Shown piece after piece: positions 307 to 34,741 of a DNA stretch of 61,778 nt. The number at the start of each line of letters is the position of its first letter. Position 1 is the stretch's first letter. The stretch lies in the IMG/VR virus record IMGVR_UViG_2778261381_000005; one strand, 5' to 3'. The notes beneath the pieces were generated by a model. It made no database searches and had not been told where the DNA came from. It was given only the letters and a program-made list of their open reading frames with translations. This DNA comes from a virus (taxonomy: Duplodnaviria; Heunggongvirae; Uroviricota; Caudoviricetes). Position numbers and translations under genes: made by a program.

Positions 307-572
307 TGCTTAAATCGATTATTAATGGCGCTACAACCACCCCCACCCAACTGGCAAAAGAGATTGTCTTTTATCACGGTGAGTACGCTGTCATCGCACT
401 GCCGTCAATTCTAGGCGCTGCCGGAATGAAAGCGACAGATCGCGAGTTTGGATTAGTCAGCGAGCAGGTCGTAAAAATCCTCGCTCGTGTATCCAGACTC
501 CTTAATCACGATGCGATTGTATTAGACGAATCCGCCGCTTTAAAACGAATCAACGAAACAAAAGGAGCCTGA
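300..572 (+). CDS. hypothetical protein
   Basis: ORF abutting previous stop; no recognisable motif. Confidence 0.3.
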   Translation: MLMLKSIINGATTTPTQLAKEIVFYHGEYAVIALPSILGAAGMKATDREFGLVSEQVVKILARVSRLLNHDAIVLDESAALKRINETKGA

Positions 573-574
573 TC

Positions 575-2914
575 ATGGCAAAAGGAAAATCCGCACTGGC
601 ACTTGCTCTGAAAAAGAAAATCGGTAGCAACGACGAAATTCAGAAAGTAACTCATTGGATTGACACAGGCTTTCCTCCGTTAAACAAAGCTATTTCCGGT
701 CGTTACGATGGCGGTTTCCCATGTGGTCGTATCGTAGAAGTATTCGGGCCACCAAGCGCGGGGAAATGTGTTACCGCAGACACCATGCTGCTGACGGAGC
801 GTGGAATGGTAACAGTGAAAGAGTTGTTTGAGATTGAAGGGTACAAAGCGACATGCACTACTCGCGATGTAGAGCATAACGTTGGACTCATCAATGAAAA
901 TGGCGTGATAGAGAAGACCTCACACCTGACATGGAACAACCGTCGCAAATTCAAGCGTATTAAGCTGGCATCAGGCGGTTATATCGAGGCTACGTTCCGT
1001 CACCCAATCCGTGTGGTTGACGACTTAGGTAATGTCGTCTGGCGACATGCTGAAAAAATCAGTGTAGGCGACACGATTCCTTCAATGGTTGGCACACATC
1101 AATTCGGCGATCAGCACCTGGATGCCAATATCGCAAAACTGATGGGCTATTTAATTGCTGACGGATACGTGGCCTCTGAAAATTCAGTGAATTTTTCTAA
1201 CACAGATCCTTTCATCAAGGATGAGTACTACCGCCTCATTTCGCTGGTATCAGACAAGATGCCAGTTACGAGAAAACATAACGGCTCGGAAGACCATGTG
1301 CTGTTTAGCAAAGAGGTGCGTTCGCTGCTTTTTAAAGAATATGGTCTGGAGTATGAGAAAGCTGCTGGCAAGCAGGTTCCGTTGAGTGTGCGTCGCGCCA
1401 ATAGCGAGGCTCAAATTGCATTCCTTCGCGGCTACTTTGAGCTGGAATGCCACGTCAATGATGGTCGCTGCATTGAGGTTGTGAGCGCGAGTGGGCTGCT
1501 GCTACAGCAAATTCGCCTCATGCTCCTGAATCTGGGGATTACGTCAACTATCTCTGAAAAACACGTCGCGGGTTATGAAAATACATATTACCGGCTGTCA
1601 TTCAGTGGCTCTAATTACGACCTTTTTCTGTCAACGATTGGTTTCGAATCTCCGGCACGTTTATCAGTGGCAACCAAACGGGACATTGGTTTTGACCGCA
1701 CTTACTCAGGCTATGTTCCGCACATCAGCGGCTTAGTGAAATCACTCTACGAGTCGCTCACCAAGACCACCCGTGAAGACTACGCTCTGGTAGACCACGT
1801 TATTGGCCGCGGCGATCGTGTCGGAATAGACAAACTGCGAGAAATCTATGTCTCCTTCATTGGCAGAAAGAATCGTTTTAACGAGCATCTGTTTGCACAA
1901 CTGGCAGCGGTAATTGGCTCTAACTTGTTCTACGACGAAGTCGTGGCTATTGAGGAAGGTGAAGCACCAACGTTCGACGTAGCGATGCCGGAAACACACT
2001 CTTTCTGGTCTAACGGGATTATCAGCCACAACACATTCCTTGCAACAGCAGCGATGATCTCCGCTCAAAAACAAGATGGTCTGGCGGTATTCCTCGATCA
2101 TGAAAACAGTTTTGACGTTGGCCTGGCTGTAGCCAATGGCCTGAACGCAGATGAGGATGACGGTCAGTGGGTATACAAGCAGCCAGATACCTTCGAAGAC
2201 TCTGTAGAGTTGATCGGCACAATACTTAAATTGGTTCGTGATGAAGAGCTTATCCCCGAATCAGCACCTATCTGTATCGTGGCTGACTCTCTTGCGTCTA
2301 TGGTTCCGAACTCCAAAGCCGAGAAGTTCGAAAAGATGGCTGAAGGCACAGCCAAAGACAAAGATCAGCTAAACATGAACGACAATACGGCACTGGCTCG
2401 TGCGACGAGTGCGAACTTCCCTACTCTGGCTTTGTGGGCACGCAAATACAACGCCTGCATCATCTTCTTGAATCAGGTTCGCACAAAAATCGGTGTAATG
2501 TTTGGCGACCCTACTACGTCGCCAGGTGGAGATTCACCGAAGTTCTACGCTTCTGTACGTATCCGTCTTGGTGCATCGGTGATGAAGGATGGTAAAGAGA
2601 AGATCGGCCAGGACGTAGGCGCAGAATGCATCAAAAACAAAGTTGCACCACCGTATGGCAAATGCACCTGGAAATTCTACTTCGATCCTACTCGTGGCCT
2701 CGACGTTATCGAATCGCTCGTCGAGTACATGCTGGAAGAAGGATACCTGCCAAAGAACGCCAGCGGGCGAGTTGAAATTGGTGACAAGAAATACACCAAA
2801 TCGCAGATCGTCGAGATGTATCGGGAGAAGCCACTGGCTGAAATCATTGCGGCTTTGCAGGCAATCGACGACCGAAGAGCAAAAGACAACCCCACCGAGT
2901 CAGTAGAAGAGTAA
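575..2914 (+). CDS. RecA/UvsX-family recombinase (Sak4-like ATPase) interrupted by an intein
   Basis: RBS aaaggag 8 nt upstream; P-loop GPPSAGK then Cys...His-Asn insert, then T-FLATAAMISAQ...FLDHENSFD RecA-like core. Confidence 0.8.
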   Translation: MAKGKSALALALKKKIGSNDEIQKVTHWIDTGFPPLNKAISGRYDGGFPCGRIVEVFGPPSAGKCVTADTMLLTERGMVTVKELFEIEGYKATCTTRDVEHNVGLINENGVIEKTSHLTWNNRRKFKRIKLASGGYIEATFRHPIRVVDDLGNVVWRHAEKISVGDTIPSMVGTHQFGDQHLDANIAKLMGYLIADGYVASENSVNFSNTDPFIKDEYYRLISLVSDKMPVTRKHNGSEDHVLFSKEVRSLLFKEYGLEYEKAAGKQVPLSVRRANSEAQIAFLRGYFELECHVNDGRCIEVVSASGLLLQQIRLMLLNLGITSTISEKHVAGYENTYYRLSFSGSNYDLFLSTIGFESPARLSVATKRDIGFDRTYSGYVPHISGLVKSLYESLTKTTREDYALVDHVIGRGDRVGIDKLREIYVSFIGRKNRFNEHLFAQLAAVIGSNLFYDEVVAIEEGEAPTFDVAMPETHSFWSNGIISHNTFLATAAMISAQKQDGLAVFLDHENSFDVGLAVANGLNADEDDGQWVYKQPDTFEDSVELIGTILKLVRDEELIPESAPICIVADSLASMVPNSKAEKFEKMAEGTAKDKDQLNMNDNTALARATSANFPTLALWARKYNACIIFLNQVRTKIGVMFGDPTTSPGGDSPKFYASVRIRLGASVMKDGKEKIGQDVGAECIKNKVAPPYGKCTWKFYFDPTRGLDVIESLVEYMLEEGYLPKNASGRVEIGDKKYTKSQIVEMYREKPLAEIIAALQAIDDRRAKDNPTESVEE
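767..2032 (+). mobile_element. intein (about 422 aa) with LAGLIDADG homing-endonuclease motifs, inserted in the Walker A motif
   Basis: Begins with Cys directly after GPPSAGK, ends His-Asn followed by Thr; motifs LMGYLIADGYV and LRGYFELECHV. Confidence 0.75.
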
Positions 2915-2920
2915 ACACAA

Positions 2921-2943
2921 GGCGTCCACAGGACGCCTTTTTA
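2921..2943 (+). terminator. rho-independent terminator
   Basis: GGCGTCC aca GGACGCC hairpin followed by T-run, just after recombinase stop. Confidence 0.65.
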
Positions 2944-3005
2944 TCTCTTGAAAATATATAAGTACTTACTTATTATTTTCACATAACAACCACATAGGAA
3001 AACAC

Positions 3006-3206
3006 ATGATCAAAATCTATCTATTGGCAGTAGCCACAGGCCTTTCAGTGGCTCTCATCTACGGTTTACTGGTTCCGTCGCTGATTTCTACCAAGAGTGA
3101 TTTAGCCGTCATGTTTGGAGTTGTCGTTGGTTTTGGTGCTCCTGTAATCGGTCTTATTGCTGGTCGTAAGTTTATCAACTCATTAATCAAAGCAAAGGGG
3201 AAATAA
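3006..3206 (+). CDS. small membrane protein (possible NfeD-like partner of the downstream SPFH protein)
   Basis: 66 aa, two hydrophobic segments; immediately upstream of SPFH lipoprotein. Confidence 0.4.
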   Translation: MIKIYLLAVATGLSVALIYGLLVPSLISTKSDLAVMFGVVVGFGAPVIGLIAGRKFINSLIKAKGK

Positions 3207-3209
3207 GTA

Positions 3210-4040
3210 ATGAAGAAAGGTTTACTTGCAGTTGCTCTGGCGGCTATTTGCACAATGGGTCTTACTGGCTGTGATCGCGTGGAGCCTGGATACGTTGGCA
3301 TCAAAGTAAACAAATTAGGTGAAGACAAAGGGATTGGTGAAGTGGTTGGCGTTGGTCGCCAATGGACAGGTCTTAACACCGAACTTTACGTATTCCCGAC
3401 CTTCAAACAAATAAAGACCTACGACGAGCCGTTCACATTCCAGATGAGTGACGGTACTGCTATTGGTCACAAAATTGGCGTTGCGTATCTGGTTAATCGT
3501 GACAAGGTAACGACGGTGTTCCAGACCTATCGCAAAGGCGTAGACGATATCACCGAATCAGATCTGCGTCAGAAAATTGCCGACTCTCTAAACCGTTTGG
3601 CCAGCCGTATGACCACTGACTCATTTATCGACGGTGGTAAGGCACAATTGCTGGACAACGCACTGAAAGATATTCAGAAAGAGATGTCTCCGGTTGGTAT
3701 TGAGGTACTGAGCCTGTCATGGGTTGGAAAGCCTGATTACCCAAAAACTGTCATTGAATCTATTAACGCCAAAGTAACGGCTAACCAGCGTACTCTGCAA
3801 CGTCAGCAGGAAGTTGAACAACGTAAAGCTGAGGCGAATATGCTACGTGAACAGGCTAATGGTGAAGCTGATGCTATCCGTGCTCGTGCGCAAGCAGAAG
3901 CAGACGCCATTCGTCTGCGCGGTGAAGCTCTGCGTCAAAACCCGAACGTTATGGAACTGGAAGCCATCAATAAATGGAATGGCCAGTTACCGCAGTACAT
4001 GACTCAAGGGGCTAACACTCCTTTCATTACAGTGAAATAA
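3210..4040 (+). CDS. lipoprotein with SPFH/band-7 (prohibitin/HflC-like) domain
   Basis: Signal peptide with lipobox LTGC; C-terminal Ala/Glu/Arg-rich coiled region typical of SPFH proteins. Confidence 0.55.
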   Translation: MKKGLLAVALAAICTMGLTGCDRVEPGYVGIKVNKLGEDKGIGEVVGVGRQWTGLNTELYVFPTFKQIKTYDEPFTFQMSDGTAIGHKIGVAYLVNRDKVTTVFQTYRKGVDDITESDLRQKIADSLNRLASRMTTDSFIDGGKAQLLDNALKDIQKEMSPVGIEVLSLSWVGKPDYPKTVIESINAKVTANQRTLQRQQEVEQRKAEANMLREQANGEADAIRARAQAEADAIRLRGEALRQNPNVMELEAINKWNGQLPQYMTQGANTPFITVK

Positions 4041-5696: not shown

Positions 5697-6231
5697 TCAC
5701 CGCTGACAGCATACACAATCAACTGCCGCTGATAGCATATCGAGAGTCTATCTCACCGCTCACAGCATACTTTACTCGATTTTTTACCGCTGACAGCATA
5801 CTTAAGACATTGCATGAATAATGTGTACCGGTATGGGTATAACCAGAACAAAATTACCGCTGGCAGCATACGAAGGTCTGACATATGCCATTAATTACCG
5901 CTGATAGCATATCCAAACAAAAATTCCTCAATAAAACACCGCTGACAGCATACGTTCTATCAGGGAGCAGCAGGCAATAAATACCTTTCACTACAAGTAA
6001 TCAGCGCAATGGGAATAGAATGTTAGTGAGCGCAAACCTATATGGAATGCACTCTTCGAGGTTAGTAACCACTGGGGAGGTATAAAAGAGCATTGAGTGG
6101 TGATAGATGATTTACCGCTCACAGCATACGTTTATCTCACTATACCGCTGGTAGCATATCTTTAACCGTTCACAGCATACTTTTCAGAAAAATAGCCGCT
6201 GATAGCATACATTTCACCGCTGACAGCATAT
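5697..6231. repeat. iteron array, about 12 copies of ~17-bp unit (C/T)ACCGCTGACAGCATAC and variants, on the 3' side of rep
   Basis: Direct repeats e.g. at 5697, 5786, 5855, 5896, 5937, 6113, 6143, 6164, 6193, 6215. Confidence 0.75.
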
Positions 6232-7325
6232 CAAAGCAGTTTGAGACTATTGGAAAGGATCTCAATCATCTTGATATTTTCAGGCGTCAAATTCTGCGAA
6301 AGTTCGGTTATCTTATTGATAATGTTCTGTTTGGCATCAATTTCCCCGGCTTTCTCATCTGGTTTTTTGGGTTCGATGTCTTCAGGTTTTGGCGGTGCGA
6401 CTTTGAGTTTTGGATTGCGGCTGTGAATCTGGATATAGATCGACCGCCCACGCTTAATCTCGCTGTATTCGAGATAGCCCAAATCTTGGAGAGCTTTTAA
6501 GCCGTTACGTATAGTCTGATTCTGCGAGCTGACATTCCTGCTACTCAAATTGAGTCGCGCACGCAATCGAGCAAGCGATACCGGCGCAGGCTTGGTTGGA
6601 AGACTTTCGATGAAGGTGTACAGAGCCTGTGCTGTTTCTTTGCGTGGTAGCTTATTGATAACCTTTAACTGCAAAAGAACCTTATGGTCAAAGCGATATA
6701 GTTCGGCCAGCTTCGGTTCTGCATAGAACACCACCGTATCTTTCTGCTCGTTGTAGTCCACGCTATTGATGAGGTGCACCATCAGAAGCGAGATCTTGTT
6801 AGAGCCGTCGACGTTCTTTTCTTCATACGTTCTCTGGAAAGACAGAGTTGTACGCATGATCTTCAAAAGACTGTTTGTAAGCCGGTCGCGGAGTGTTTTG
6901 CGGATCTGTGACGATGGATAGCCACAAAACTTCGCAAATTTCGTGATGCTTAACTCGACACGACCATTAGGTTCGCCGTATTCTGCCAGCGAACGCACAA
7001 CGCCCACCCACGTTTTGAAATCATGATCCATGTCCAGGCGAGGACCGGTTATCTTGATATCGGAATAGCCTTCAGAACGGGCTACTTCGAGCTGGACAAG
7101 CTCCTTTGAAGCATCGATCTCATTTGGCTTGTTACGTTTACTGTATTTTGTTCCCTTAAGCGTGGGGACGAACAACCCCAGTCGCATCAACGCAATTGGT
7201 TGGACTGTATTGTTGCTATTAGGGACAAGTTCCCCTGTGTACAATTCAAGGGAACCTTCTTCAAAGTTGTCGATGTTATCTTCTACTTCTTTGTTATTTT
7301 TACCTTTTTTATTTTTTGTGGACAT
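6231..7325 (-). CDS. plasmid-type replication initiator (iteron-binding Rep), tentative
   Basis: Flanked on both sides by iterons; RBS aaaggtg before MSTKNKK start; basic protein; ORF-track start at 7445 rejected because it runs into iterons. Confidence 0.55.
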   Translation of the reverse strand: MSTKNKKGKNNKEVEDNIDNFEEGSLELYTGELVPNSNNTVQPIALMRLGLFVPTLKGTKYSKRNKPNEIDASKELVQLEVARSEGYSDIKITGPRLDMDHDFKTWVGVVRSLAEYGEPNGRVELSITKFAKFCGYPSSQIRKTLRDRLTNSLLKIMRTTLSFQRTYEEKNVDGSNKISLLMVHLINSVDYNEQKDTVVFYAEPKLAELYRFDHKVLLQLKVINKLPRKETAQALYTFIESLPTKPAPVSLARLRARLNLSSRNVSSQNQTIRNGLKALQDLGYLEYSEIKRGRSIYIQIHSRNPKLKVAPPKPEDIEPKKPDEKAGEIDAKQNIINKITELSQNLTPENIKMIEILSNSLKLL

Positions 7326-7344
7326 GTGGACACCTTTGTCATTC

Positions 7345-7446
7345 AACCGCTGACAGCATACTTGATTTGCCGCTGACAGAATACCAAAAACAGTTGGCAG
7401 CATACGGTGAACCGCTGACAGACTATCAATTACCGCTGACAGCATA
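7345..7446. repeat. iteron array (5 copies) immediately upstream of rep start
   Basis: aaccgctgacagcatac, tgccgctgacagaatac, gttggcagcatac, aaccgctgacagactat, taccgctgacagcatac. Confidence 0.75.
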
Positions 7447-7494
7447 CATGAACATGACTTCAGACCAGTCGTGGCGCGGCTTACAGCGATCGGG

Positions 7495-28684: not shown

Positions 28685-31600
28685 CTATATCTGCCCACCT
28701 ACTCCTTTGAACTTTTCAATAAACGTGACGATTTTCTGGAAAACGGTCTGTTTTTTCGTTTTATATTGCGGGTTTAACGGACTAAGTTTTGGTAATGTCT
28801 CGTTTAATTCTGTGCCATTTTCGGTGGCGTATTCGCGTTTTAAAGACGTGCGAATATAGCGTTTCGCCGCCTCTTCATTGAGATTTTCTTCTTTTATCAA
28901 TGCTTCTGCTTCACGTTGCTGTTCGCGTTGAGCAAACGTAAAGAATGCCTCAATGATACTGGCTTTGTCTGGTAAATCATCCAGGTTCGTTTGCTGAATA
29001 AAATCGACCACCAGGCCCTCTTTCGCCCGGTTCCCCAGGCTTGAACGAATTAAGCGTTTGACCTCTTCGATCATTTCGCCCTTGCCTTTATTTTGTCTGT
29101 TGTGTTCGAAAATCAGTCCAAGGATATAATCCAGGTTTATTTCCTGAGACTTCAGCAAATCGACCTCAAAAACTACGTCATCCCAGTCAGTGGTTGATTT
29201 CTCTTTTTTCTCAGCTTCTTTCTCACGGCGCTGCCAGTCGCGAATATCGTTATAGGCAGAACGATAATCCTGAATCTTGCGTTCAGCAGGGAGACGAATT
29301 GTTTGCAATTCAGCGAACTTTTCATCATCCACATAATGTTCTGCTTTGAATTTTTCTACCGCAACAGGATCGCTAAGATCGATTTGTTGCAGGGCTTTCA
29401 GCGTGGCAAATTCATCATAGTTTTGCAGGATGTTCTCGGCACGCAGGTATTCACCAAACAGTTTTACGAAGTCTTTCTTCTCTTTTTCACTTTCAATACT
29501 GGCAGGGTCAGGGAACCGTTGTTCCAGTTCTGAAACTACTGCCATAAAGCCGCGTTTAGCTTCACCAGTGGCAGCATCTGTAAAGCCTTCCATATACTCA
29601 GCATAACTCTTTTCTAACACCACATTTTTAGTATTTTTATCACCAAACAGCGTTATGGCATCAATGGTTGAGCGTTCCAGATCCCGAAAAGTGACGATGT
29701 TACCGAAGGTTTTAGTAGCGTCATAAATGCGGTTGGTACGGGAGAATGCCTGCATCAGGCCGTGAAAACGCAAGTTTTTATCGACGAATAGCGTGTTCAA
29801 TGTTGGAGCGTCGAAGCCGGTTAAAAACATCCCAACGACAATTAACAGATCGATATCCTGATTTTTAACCCGTTGGGCTAAATCACGATAGTAGTTCTGA
29901 AAACCGTTACTGTCGGTGCTGAAGTTAGTTTTAAAATAGCTGTTATACTCACGAATTGCAGCGTCAAGAAACTCTTTAGCACTGCTGTCCATTGCGCTGG
30001 TATCAAAAGTTTCATCGGAAATTTCACCAATGGCATTTTGTTCTTCATTGGCGGCAAAGGAGAAGATTGTTGCAACACGCAGCGGTTTATAGGTAGCCGA
30101 TTTATTAGCTGCTTCCTCTTGTAACCGTTTAAACGTCGCGTAATAGGCTTTCGCGGCATCCACGCTACTCACTGCCAGCATGGCATTAAAGCCTTTGGAA
30201 CCTGGGAAAGTACGGTGGGTCTTCTGGCGGAAGTTATTCAGAATATATTGCGTAATTTCCTGTATACGCATGGGATGAAGAAATGCCTGCTGATTTTCAG
30301 CCGCACTCAGTTTTTTCTCGTCGGTTTCTGTCTCTAAAGATTTAAACTGTGGCCGCACATCGTTGTAGTCCACCTTGAATTTGAGCACTTTTTCATCACG
30401 AATCGCATCGGTAATTACATACGAATGCAATTCACGACCAAATACGCTGGCGGTCGTTTCTGAGCCTAAGGCGTTTTCCGGGAAAATAGGTGTGCCGGTA
30501 AAACCAAACTGATAATAGCGTTTGAATTTCTTCTTCAGGTTTTTCTGCGCTTCTCCAAACTGGCTGCGGTGACATTCATCAAATATAAACACCACTTGCT
30601 GATTGTATACAGGCAGGTCGCTTTCTGCTTTCATCAGGTTATTAAGTTTCTGAATAGTGGTGACGATAATTTTGTTATCGTCCTTATCCAGATTGCGTTT
30701 AAGACCTGCGGTATTTTCCGAGCCGTTGACGCTGTCTGGCGAAAAACGCTTATATTCATTCATGGTCTGGTAATCGAGGTCTTTCCTGTCGACCACGAAG
30801 AAGACTTTATCAATAAAGTCCAGCTCTGTTGCCAGACGCGCGGCTTTAAAGCTGGTGAGGGTTTTACCTGAACCGGTAGTGTGCCAGATATACCCACCGC
30901 TTTCCGGTTTTGACCAGTTCTTCGCTGTAAAGGAACTCTTAATTTTCCACAGAATGCGCTCAGTGGCGGCAATCTGGTACGGTCGCATCACCAGTAGCGT
31001 TTGGCTAACATCGAATACGCTGTAGTTCACTAAGACATTAAGCAGGGTATGTTTCTGGAAAAAGGTGGCGGTAAAGTCTTTGAGGTCTTTAATCAGCGTG
31101 TTGTCTGATTTCGCCCAATTCATGGTGAAGTCAAAACTGTTTTTATCGCGCTTTGTCGTGTTGGCAAAGTAACGGGTATCGGTGCCGTTGGAAATGACAA
31201 ACAGTTGCAGATACTTAAACAGAGAATTTTCGCTGTTAAAACTCTCTTTGCTGTAACGATGTATCTGGTTAAAGGCCTCACGAATCGCCACGCCGCGCTT
31301 TTTCAGTTCGATTTGTACCAGCGGTAAGCCATTAACCAGGATCGTGACGTCATAACGGTTAGCATGAGAACCCGTCTGTTCAAACTGCTGGATAATCTGC
31401 ACCTTGTTGCGCATGAGATTCTTTTTATCTATCAAATAGATGTTCTCAAGACGCTCGTCATCAAAAATAAAGTCGCAAATATAGTCGATATGGATTTTAC
31501 GGGTCTTATCCAGGATGCCATCGCTCGGGTTATCCAGATACTGCTCCGTGAAACGCCGCCATTCGCTGTCATTAAACACCACACCATTGAGGTTCTGAAG

Positions 31601-31801
31601 CTGTTCCCGAACGTTGGCCAGCATCGCCGACTGAGATTTTACGGAAATAAATTCATAGCCCTGATTCCGCAGATCCTGAATCAGTTCACGTTCCAGGTCC
31701 GATTCGCTCTGGTAGCTGTCGCCTGTTTGCTCGGCTTTGATGTACTTATCAAGAACGATAAAGTTATTGGATTCAGCAATGGTGTGTGTCTGATGAGTCA
31801 T
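28685..31801 (-). CDS. hsdR: type I restriction enzyme R subunit (EcoR124-like, type IC)
   Basis: 1038 aa; helicase motifs TGSGKT, DECHRS, SRTNR; N-terminus resembles EcoR124I HsdR as I recall it. Confidence 0.9.
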
Positions 31802-31922
31802 AGCGCATCCTTTGTGCCGTCTGGCAAGGGCCGGAAGGGCTTTAAGGGCGACTTCCGGCGTGTAAAAAATAGTCTCTATATAGACCGGATGTTAAGGTGA
31901 TCCGGTCGGTAGCAATGGTCAA

Positions 31923-33178
<1,256 letters not shown>

Positions 33179-33182
<4 letters not shown>

Positions 33183-34741
33183 GCCTGTACCTCGCTACCT
33201 TCAATCTCAGCAACAATCGCATCAATATCTTTACGCAACTGGTCGATTTTGCTGACCGTGGTTTTCAGCTCAGCATTCAGCTCAGCGATATCGATAATTT
33301 CGCGAGTATCTTTCGCTTCCACATAGCTGCTCACCGACAGGTTATAGTCATTCGCGACAACAGTCTCAAACGCAACAGATTTCGCCAGATGAGCAACATC
33401 TTCCTTGCTGGCAAATACCTGCATAATCTGTTCGATATGAGCATCGGTCAGAATGTTGTTGTTAGTCTCTTTTTTGAACAGTTCGCTGGCATCAATAAAC
33501 TGAACTTTGGTATCCGTTTTATGTTTAGACAGCACCAGAATATTGACGGCAATAGTGGTGCCAAAGAACAGATTCGGTGCCAGTGAAATCACGGTTTCGA
33601 CATAGTTATTGTCGACCAGATACTGACGGATTTTCTGCTCCGCGCCGCCACGGTAAAAAATGCCTGGGAAGCAGACAATCGCAGCGCGACCTTTGGCCGA
33701 AAGATAGTTCAGCGCATGTAATACAAACGCAAAGTCAGCTTTGGATTTGGGGGCCAGAACGCCAGCCGGGGCAAAACGTTCATCGTTAATCAGCGTCGGG
33801 TCATCGCTGCCAATCCATTTCACCGAATACGGCGGGTTAGAAACGATGGCATCAAACGGTTTTTCATCTCTGAAGTGCGGCTCAGTCAGTGTATTACCCA
33901 GCTTGATATCAAACTTGTCGTAGTTGATGTTGTGCAAAAACATGTTCATACGCGCCAGGTTATAGGTCGTATGGTTGATTTCCTGACCAAAAAAACCTTC
34001 TTCGATGATATGGTCATCAAACTGTTTTTTCGCCTGCAACAACAGCGAACCGGAGCCTGCTGCCGGGTCGTAGATTTTGTTAACGTGGGTCTGCCCGTGC
34101 ATAGCCAGTTGTGCAATCAGCTTAGAGACGTGCTGCGGTGTAAAGAACTCGCCGCCGGACTTACCGGCATTCGCCGCATAGTTAGAAATCAGGAACTCAT
34201 AGGCGTCACCGAACAGGTCAATCTGATGTTCATGGAAGTCACCAAGTTTTAGCCCTTCAACCCCTTTCAGAACCGCAGCCAAGCGGGCATTTTTATCTTT
34301 AACGGTGTTACCCAGGCGGTTACTGGTGGTATCGAAATCAGCAAACAAACCTTTGATGTCAGCTTCTGAAGGATAACCGTAAGCAGAACTTTCGATAGCA
34401 ACGAAGATGCTGTTTAAATCTGCATTCAGTCTGTCATTAGTATTTGCTTTCGCAGCTACGTTGCAGAAAAGCTGACTGGGGTAGATGAAGTAGCCTTTAG
34501 TTTTGATGGCATCGTCTTTAATGTCATCAGTAATTACGCTGTCATCCAGTTTCGCATAACAGATACTGTCATCACCGGCTTCAATATAACTGGAAAAATT
34601 TTCGCTGATAAAACGGTAAAAAAGCGCGCCCAAAACGTACTGCTTAAAATCCCATCCATCGACTGAACCCCTGACATCGTTAGCAATTTGCCAGATCTGG
34701 CGATGAAGCTCTGCACGTTGTTGAATACTTGTCATTTTCAT
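33179..34741 (-). CDS. hsdM: type I restriction-modification methyltransferase subunit
   Basis: 520 aa; N6-adenine MTase motifs DPAAGSGS and NPPY; operon order hsdM-hsdS-hsdR. Confidence 0.9.

Follow-up and report, generated by a model that had tools for sequence, protein, structure and literature searches.

A predicted self-splicing and homing intein in the Walker A motif of a RecA/UvsX-like recombinase of SSU5-like phage-plasmids

The window analysed here is the whole stretch of 61,778 nucleotides (nt) of the IMG/VR virus record IMGVR_UViG_2778261381_000005 (Caudoviricetes). At positions 575-2914 of its plus strand it carries an open reading frame (ORF) of 2340 nt for a RecA/UvsX-like protein of 779 amino acids (aa), within which an insert with the features of an intein was recognized (Table 1). 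The translation reads ...VFGPPSAGK/CVTADTML...GIISHN/TFLATAA..., where the slashes mark, here and below, the junctions between Lys64 and Cys65 and between Asn486 and Thr487. The insertion point is located between Lys64 and the Thr of the Walker A motif, and excision of the insert regenerates GPPSAGKT. The whole protein matches Pfam RecA (3.3e-36; 125.5 bits with a cut-off of 27), the match being split by the insert, and splicing would restore the Walker A pattern GxxxxGK(T/S) of the RecA ATPase core. The first codon of the C-extein (ACA, Thr+1) encodes both the splice nucleophile and the final Walker A residue. The spliced product was found to match PHROG 97, annotated as "UvsX-like recombinase" (1.1e-91), and reached 153.7 bits with the RecA equivalog model TIGR02012, below its cut-off of 325.3. 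Given the PHROG 97 match and a score far under the TIGR02012 cut-off, the profile evidence indicates that this recombinase is a diverged phage-type RecA/UvsX-like protein and no orthologue of cellular RecA.

Judged by its sequence, the insert is a standard class-1 intein with a LAGLIDADG endonuclease, and protein splicing is predicted for it. It starts with Cys1, contains the TxxH of block B and ends with blocks F and G (PTFDVAMPETHSFWSNG-IISHN/T), in which His-Asn is followed by Thr+1; the stretch PTFDV.MPETHSFWSNG.ISHN, spanning these two blocks, is almost invariant among the relatives. Pfam Intein_splicing (2.1e-11) aligns with aa 73-486 and reaches its final profile position (155/155) at Asn486, the NCBIfam model TIGR01445 (intein_Nterm) covers aa 65-147 (35.5 bits, cut-off 24.5), and Pfam LAGLIDADG_3 covers aa 279-356 (2.4e-17; 63-66 bits, cut-off 22.5). 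The curated Pfam cut-offs were passed by RecA, LAGLIDADG_3 and Intein_splicing alike. A sequence-only reading of the window had placed a 422-aa insert with canonical ends (Cys ... His-Asn/Thr) and two LAGLIDADG-type motifs in Walker A between Lys and Thr; its coordinates proved exact, both motifs are present, and so are all four of the splicing blocks (A, B, F and G) that it had named as the ones to look for.

Natural intein-less alleles of the same gene are known from related phages, where the sequence-only reading had suggested to look for them. The RecA of Escherichia phage CMS-2020a (357 aa) is identical at 357/357 positions to the window protein minus residues 65-486, and its junction reads GPPSAGK/TFLATAA in the protein and ...GGGAAA/ACGTTC... 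in the DNA (at greater length, ...GGTCCTCCAAGTGCAGGGAAA/ACGTTCCTTGCAACAGCAGCG...), with the flanking DNA being about 98-99% identical between this phage and the window. The ligated junction peptide predicted after splicing is ...GPPSAGKTFLATAAMISAQK. The allele of Salmonella phage SSU5 is likewise intein-less (GPPSAGK/TFLATAA; ...GGTAAA/ACCTTTTTG...). The in-frame insert is thus precisely missing from orthologous alleles, and the restoration of GPPSAGKT, claimed earlier from the translation, is found in nature as well. The exact match of the predicted spliced product to a natural empty allele is far beyond chance. A different explanation would be that there is no intein at all, the insert being a permanently retained domain or the product of a misassembled or fused free-standing endonuclease gene, in line with the NCBI Prokaryotic Genome Annotation Pipeline (PGAP), which often calls the whole ORF only "LAGLIDADG family homing endonuclease". 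Such an unspliced insert would split Walker A between Lys and Thr, so that ATP could not be bound; in addition, the endonuclease lies between Hint blocks A and B on one side and F and G on the other, more than 230 independent complete plasmids contain this 2340-nt ORF, and close relatives, instead of showing the insert as a normal domain, have a precisely joined intein-free allele. This explanation can be regarded as effectively refuted.

Table 1. Features of the recombinase locus and the replication initiator gene (positions refer to the window; residue numbers of intein parts count from Cys1)
Feature	Position	Strand	Remarks
Shine-Dalgarno sequence AGGAG	563-567	+	7 nt 5' of the recombinase ATG; read from the sequence
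N-extein, aa 1-64	575-766	+	protein identical to the N-terminal part of the intein-less CMS-2020a RecA
First seven Walker A residues, GPPSAGK	746-766	+	close the N-extein
Whole intein, class 1, 422 aa (Cys1 ... His421-Asn422)	767-2032	+	1266 nt, in frame, stop-free; protein residues 65-486
N-terminal part of Hint domain, ~intein aa 1-110	767-1096	+	limits approximate; beta-strand region 7-107; conserved among relatives
Block A, CVTADTMLL	767-793	+	nucleophile Cys1
Block B, ATFRHPIRV	989-1015	+	T76 and H79 (TxxH)
LAGLIDADG homing-endonuclease domain and helical extension, ~intein aa 111-385	1097-1921	+	limits approximate; Pfam LAGLIDADG_3, fold matches
LAGLIDADG motif 1, LMGYLIADGY, intein aa 125-134	1139-1168	+	acidic residue D132
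LAGLIDADG motif 2, FLRGYFELECH, intein aa 219-229	1421-1453	+	acidic residue E227
C-terminal part of Hint domain, intein aa 386-422	1922-2032	+	match to the C-terminus of DnaB mini-intein 4o1r
Block F, PTFDVAMPETHSFWSNG	1967-2017	+	D404 and H411
Block G, IISHN	2018-2032	+	H421 and N422, then Thr+1
C-extein, aa 487-779 and stop	2033-2914	+	Pfam RecA aa 484-703; protein identical to CMS-2020a
Intrinsic-terminator-like hairpin GGCGTCC-ACA-GGACGCC, then TTTTT	2921-2942	+	just 3' of the stop; read from the sequence, unscored by the terminator scanner
Rep3-family replication initiator	6231-7445	-	Pfam Rep3_N, 5e-9; fits the IncFIB typing of matching plasmids

An AlphaFold2 model of the intein, based on an alignment of 11 relatives, reached a predicted local distance difference test (pLDDT) value of 81 and a predicted template-modelling (pTM) score of 0.85; it is weak over the last ~14 intein residues, with pLDDT below 50 at residues 409-412 and 416-422. 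The best match found by Foldseek in the PDB was the TliVMA intein (7qss; E-value 7.8e-20, template-modelling (TM) score 0.68). The further top matches were all bifunctional intein-endonucleases, i.e. PI-PfuI (1dq3), PI-PkoII (2cw7), the PhoVMA intein and PI-SceI, while the lower ranks were taken by mini-inteins, among them that of P. horikoshii RadA, and by I-DmoI, a free-standing LAGLIDADG enzyme. The Hint fold was recovered in the Foldseek matches to full inteins and to the mini-inteins 4oz6, 1am2, 4e2t and 2in0 (all with probability 1.00), and the alpha-beta-beta-alpha-beta-beta-alpha core of LAGLIDADG enzymes lies at model residues ~120-290, where PI-PfuI, PI-PkoII and I-DmoI were matched. 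The two LAGLIDADG helices end in the acidic residues D132 and E227, respectively, which align with the metal-binding acidic positions of the endonuclease of the V-ATPase intein 7qsu; E227 is aligned there to an Asp. The endonuclease is likely, but not certain, to be catalytically competent despite an atypical second motif.

From these data it is very probable that the insert is a bifunctional class-1 intein at Lys64/Thr of Walker A, predicted to splice itself and to home, in the recombinase of an SSU5-like phage-plasmid. The class-1 splicing pathway is standard, established chemistry; its steps are assigned here on the basis of conserved residues and fold, and those at the DNA level on the basis of population data. 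In the 779-aa precursor the P-loop would be broken and the protein presumably inactive. Cys1 would undergo an N-to-S acyl shift aided by T76 and H79 of block B, the thioester would pass to the hydroxyl of Thr+1, and Asn422 would cyclise with the aid of His421 and of D404/H411 of block F. An O-to-N shift would then seal GPPSAGK-TFLATAA, leading to an active recombinase of 357 aa and a free 422-aa intein. The latter would act as a monomeric, two-motif LAGLIDADG endonuclease, which may cut the uninterrupted site GGGAAA/AC(G/C)TT... when two phage-plasmids share a cell. Repair of the double-strand break from the intein-containing copy would convert the empty allele, and could make use of the UvsY-like mediator, gp32-like single-stranded DNA-binding protein (SSB), 5'-3' exonuclease and RecA of the element itself.

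The distribution of the intein is patchy. Among the PLSDB plasmids the recombinase gene was found in 736 records and the intein in 237-248, which is about a third. The intein and gene matches numbered 123 and 229 in Escherichia, 71 and 269 in Klebsiella, 41 and 91 in Enterobacter, 6 and 21 in Citrobacter, 1 and 42 in Salmonella, and 0 and 63 in Yersinia, respectively. The junction region was present in 248 complete E. coli genomes, with the intein in ~120 and an uninterrupted junction in 129, and all E. coli copies were plasmid-borne (0 chromosomal). The intein is 92.7-100% identical among plasmids of Escherichia, Klebsiella, Enterobacter, Citrobacter, Cronobacter, Kluyvera and Salmonella; the identity of the host gene is 80-90% in 380 of the 736 PLSDB records (over half). 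A few copies are irregular (CP059946.1, NZ_CP116971.1 and CP057895.1): one match to the intein gene is stretched over 3120 nt, which implies an insertion of ~780 nt, and two others are restricted to the final 46% and 19% of the intein. These interrupted or partial copies are probably the result of insertion sequences or deletions.

Divergence of intein and extein was compared pairwise among eight intein-containing alleles. Between the allele Kp4727 and that of C. freundii the inteins differ by 0.1% and the exteins by 17.0%, and between Kp4727 and E. hormaechei by 0.2% and 15.3%, respectively; between the window and Kp4727 the synonymous divergence (dS) is 0.09 in the intein and ~1.9 in the extein. 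In pairs with near-identical inteins the shift in divergence starts at most ~10 nt from each junction. The reverse pattern was observed for Kp4727 and KpGN02018 (intein 6.2%, extein 2.1%). For the endonuclease part the ratio of nonsynonymous to synonymous divergence (dN/dS) came to 0.09-0.12 and for the Hint parts to 0.03-0.11, at a dS of 0.2-0.3, values that indicate purifying selection on the intein, its endonuclease domain included. Among 15 sampled alleles, all those with the intein (9/9) use ACA for Thr+1 and all those without it (6/6) use ACG or ACC, a linkage that would fit a very short co-conversion tract. On the basis of the discordance between intein and extein, the purifying selection on the endonuclease, the patchy presence and the ACA linkage, an active homing endonuclease that spreads the intein among co-resident phage-plasmids is favoured, although not proven. 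No signal of compositional foreignness was found when the GC content of the intein (48.2%) was compared with that of the extein (49.0%) and of the window (45.9%).

Several observations weigh against active homing. The second LAGLIDADG motif ends with Glu-Cys and not with the usual Asp-Gly. The ACA association comes from 15 alleles that are phylogenetically non-independent. The exteins of the window and CMS-2020a differ at 18 positions, all synonymous, of which 9 fall in the 103 nt that precede the junction on its 5' side (background ~1%), and this cluster is no clean co-conversion tract. A homing co-conversion tract in the 103-nt flank was considered and rejected, as the intein-less allele Ec504211 has the window-type flank and the intein-containing EcET350 the CMS-type flank; 5'-flank haplotypes are common to intein-containing and intein-less alleles, and the third base of the Thr+1 codon is the sole flank feature that stays linked to the intein. 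The idea that the CMS-type 5' flank confers synonymous resistance to cleavage was likewise abandoned: EcET350 has the intein beside such a flank, which is therefore not obviously immune. Finally, the recombinase gene is a mosaic, and the discordance between intein and extein could stem from ordinary homologous recombination whose breakpoints lie within the gene or close to it. Window and EcCP53 (E. coli pCP53-113k) have identical N-exteins, while their C-exteins diverge from nt +9 after the intein (~13% overall), and the recombinase genes of window and Cyrano show no difference up to +316 nt but 30 in the next ~490 nt. As judged from these comparisons, recombination breakpoints are frequent in and around the recombinase gene; since the gene is generally mosaic, ordinary recombination contributes to the pattern too.

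The strong mosaicism of the gene irrespective of the intein and the Glu-Cys of motif 2 could also be explained by a splicing-competent intein with an inactive endonuclease, whose patchiness would result from vertical inheritance, occasional precise loss and ordinary recombination among co-resident phage-plasmids; in addition, LAGLIDADG motif 1 is clearly gone from three distant relatives (P0007, P0012 and P0013, see below), which shows that inteins of this family do degenerate. We consider this explanation unlikely. Both acidic residues are kept, and dN/dS remains at ~0.1 over a dS of 0.2-0.3, whereas a dead enzyme should drift toward 1. Moreover, inteins only 0.1-0.2% apart reside in alleles with exteins 15-17% apart, with the shift occurring within ~10 nt of the junctions, and conversion initiated by an endonuclease explains such junction-sharp discordance more easily than chance crossovers.

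It has also to be considered whether the intein is kept for a benefit, as a conditional-splicing switch that leaves the recombinase inactive until a signal is received, such as a redox change at Cys1 or lytic induction. Conditional splicing is documented for the RadA intein of archaea, which occupies the equivalent site in the P-loop, and has been suggested for inteins of RecA and DnaB (PMC5790916, PMC4760082, PMC6195587). The window intein has a Cys1 nucleophile as well as three further cysteines (C30, C228 and C235), and its occupancy is high, at ~50% in E. coli. On the other hand, intein-less alleles with an identical mature protein are equally frequent in the same host species, which implies that the intein is not required, and the intact endonuclease under selection is what would be predicted of a selfish element. 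We therefore judge a switch of this kind extremely unlikely. The broader proposal, in which the intein would be a post-translational recombination switch in the transition from plasmid to phage and the ~50% polymorphism in E. coli would reflect balancing selection and not a homing cycle, is speculative and given a very low probability.

The point between Lys and Thr of Walker A is known as the "classic" P-loop site for inteins and is commonly occupied in ATPases of bacteria, archaea and phages, including TerL, DnaB, MCM and RFC (PMC5050341, PMC4760082). RecA is among the top intein-bearing bacterial proteins, Proteobacteria included (PMC4760082), and the archaeal RecA homologue RadA has mini-inteins within its P-loop (PMC5790916). 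The description of the P-loop of a recombination ATPase as a classic intein target, made from the sequence alone, thus agrees with the site reported in the literature (PMC5050341, PMC4760082). The window intein resembles the classic P-loop inteins in having the identical GK/T site, a Thr+1 nucleophile and a host ATPase of DNA metabolism on a phage or mobile element; it is different in its RecA/UvsX-like host, and the identity is low, with matches at the profile level only. NCBIfam models for the intein-containing archaeal RFC small subunit and for IF-2 align from 7-11 residues before the intein, owing to the shared P-loop context.

The RadA inteins of Pyrococcus horikoshii and Thermococcus sibericus (4e2t; PMC5790916) likewise have a host of the RecA superfamily and an insertion within the ATPase P-loop, and the Hint domain of the model matches 4e2t with an E-value of 4e-5 and 22% identity. 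However, these are archaeal mini-inteins that lack an endonuclease and splice conditionally with temperature (PMC5790916), whereas the window contains a full intein of 422 aa in an enterobacterial phage-plasmid. With the RecA inteins of Mycobacterium tuberculosis and M. leprae (PI-MtuI; 2in0; NF007072) it shares a bacterial-type RecA host and a Cys1 nucleophile. With NF007072 ("intein-containing recombinase RecA") the alignment is confined to the extein part (aa 484-691; profile positions 71-253), at 100.8 bits and a cut-off of 1024. The mycobacterial RecA inteins sit far downstream in RecA and not in the P-loop, unlike the window intein, which is an independent, non-allelic insertion. The best matches both in sequence and in fold are TliVMA/PhoVMA (7qss, 7qst), PI-PfuI (1dq3), PI-PkoII (2cw7) and PI-SceI (1vde), which equally combine a Hint domain with a pseudo-dimeric LAGLIDADG core. 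These solved intein-endonucleases are only 14-21% identical to the window intein and come from archaeal or yeast V-ATPase, ribonucleotide reductase (RNR) and polymerase hosts, and TM-scores of 0.59-0.68 point to a different domain packing or extra helices.

A deep homologue search with the intein yielded 13 clusters, but missed the full-length 779-aa plasmid proteins, so that close relatives are under-reported in it. The closest true relatives of the window intein are a few uncharacterised RecA inteins from metagenomes and metagenome-assembled genomes (P0004-P0013), with 28-45% identity over the whole intein. All of these are inserted at the same RecA site (G..GK/C...SHN/T). They differ from the window in their diverged host RecAs, several of which are canonical bacterial-type proteins with RecA_C, and several have a degenerate endonuclease domain. 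Same-site relatives, some with a decayed endonuclease, present the picture expected of a family that may be passing through a homing cycle. P0004 (ena:ERZ27257820:k141_7541; 44% identity), the closest non-enterobacterial relative, is found in a syntenic phage-like module of gp32-like SSB, 5'-3' exonuclease and RecA. At locus positions 7380-7470 it contains an in-frame TGA at the conserved Trp of block F (PETHSF-stop-SNGFISHN/T), and gene callers split the gene there. It could reflect a TGG-to-TGA nonsense mutation, in which case the intein would be dying and would destroy the recombinase with it, or be due to a sequencing error; a third possibility is that TGA is read as Trp.

Escherichia phages Cyrano and PhiR41_1 share 98-99% identity with the window, to which Salmonella phage SSU5 is related as well. 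Near-identical database records are plasmids of ~110 kb, mostly IncFIB and non-mobilizable, and the window itself encodes a Rep3-family replication initiator. We identify the element as an SSU5-like phage-plasmid that has a Rep3/IncFIB replicon and lives as a ~110-kb plasmid in Enterobacteriaceae. Its earlier description as a phage needs correction, as it is not simply a phage, given the plasmid lifestyle to which the initiator and the plasmid records testify. In Cyrano, genes for a UvsY-like mediator, a gp32-like SSB and a 5'-3' exonuclease precede the recombinase, forming a recombination module.

Inteins target conserved functional sites, and a P-loop target shows conservation, not essentiality; the earlier suggestion that the intein marks the gene as essential to the phage is therefore unsupported. 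In the E. albertii plasmid p3RM15115 (CP043243.1), which measures 62 kb versus ~110 kb for the others, the recombinase (locus positions 1309-3651) is intact through the intein and truncated afterwards, the frame of the C-extein being broken after ...KFEKMAE. This plasmid has the appearance of a degraded phage-plasmid that no longer maintains the recombinase, and the truncated copy in this derivative shows that the recombinase is dispensable at least for plasmid maintenance.

The element is real and belongs to a well-known kind that automated annotation already recognises, although the product names are inconsistent. PGAP has named copies "intein-containing recombinase RecA" (Enterobacter copies), "hint domain-containing protein" and "LAGLIDADG family homing endonuclease", and in many RefSeq and phage records the whole 779-aa ORF is called "LAGLIDADG family homing endonuclease", "hypothetical protein" or plain "RecA". 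The correct description, intein-containing RecA/UvsX-like recombinase, could be used to harmonize these names. The same applies to PHROG 9666, a 779-position profile of "unknown function" that represents the intein-containing recombinase (intein match 2e-302, extein match 1e-243) and could be annotated as intein-containing UvsX/RecA-like recombinase. A search of the accessible literature library found no paper on inteins of SSU5-like phage-plasmids. In clinically common Enterobacteriaceae, phage-plasmids that are otherwise near-identical differ in whether they have the intein. This polymorphism offers a natural system in which the homing cycle, co-conversion and phage-plasmid super-infection could conveniently be studied in E. 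coli.

In addition to the recombinase, the window encodes an RNR, an SbcC-like ATPase, a type I restriction-modification (R-M) system and a terminase. A search for further inteins in the window found no Hint or endonuclease domain in the RNR large subunit (771 aa), the terminase large subunit (418 aa), the SbcC-like ATPase, the helicase or the type I R-M subunits. The type I R-M system is complete, with HsdR (1038 aa), HsdS (419 aa) and HsdM (520 aa) encoded on the minus strand at window positions 28685-34741, and appears to be cargo of the phage-plasmid.

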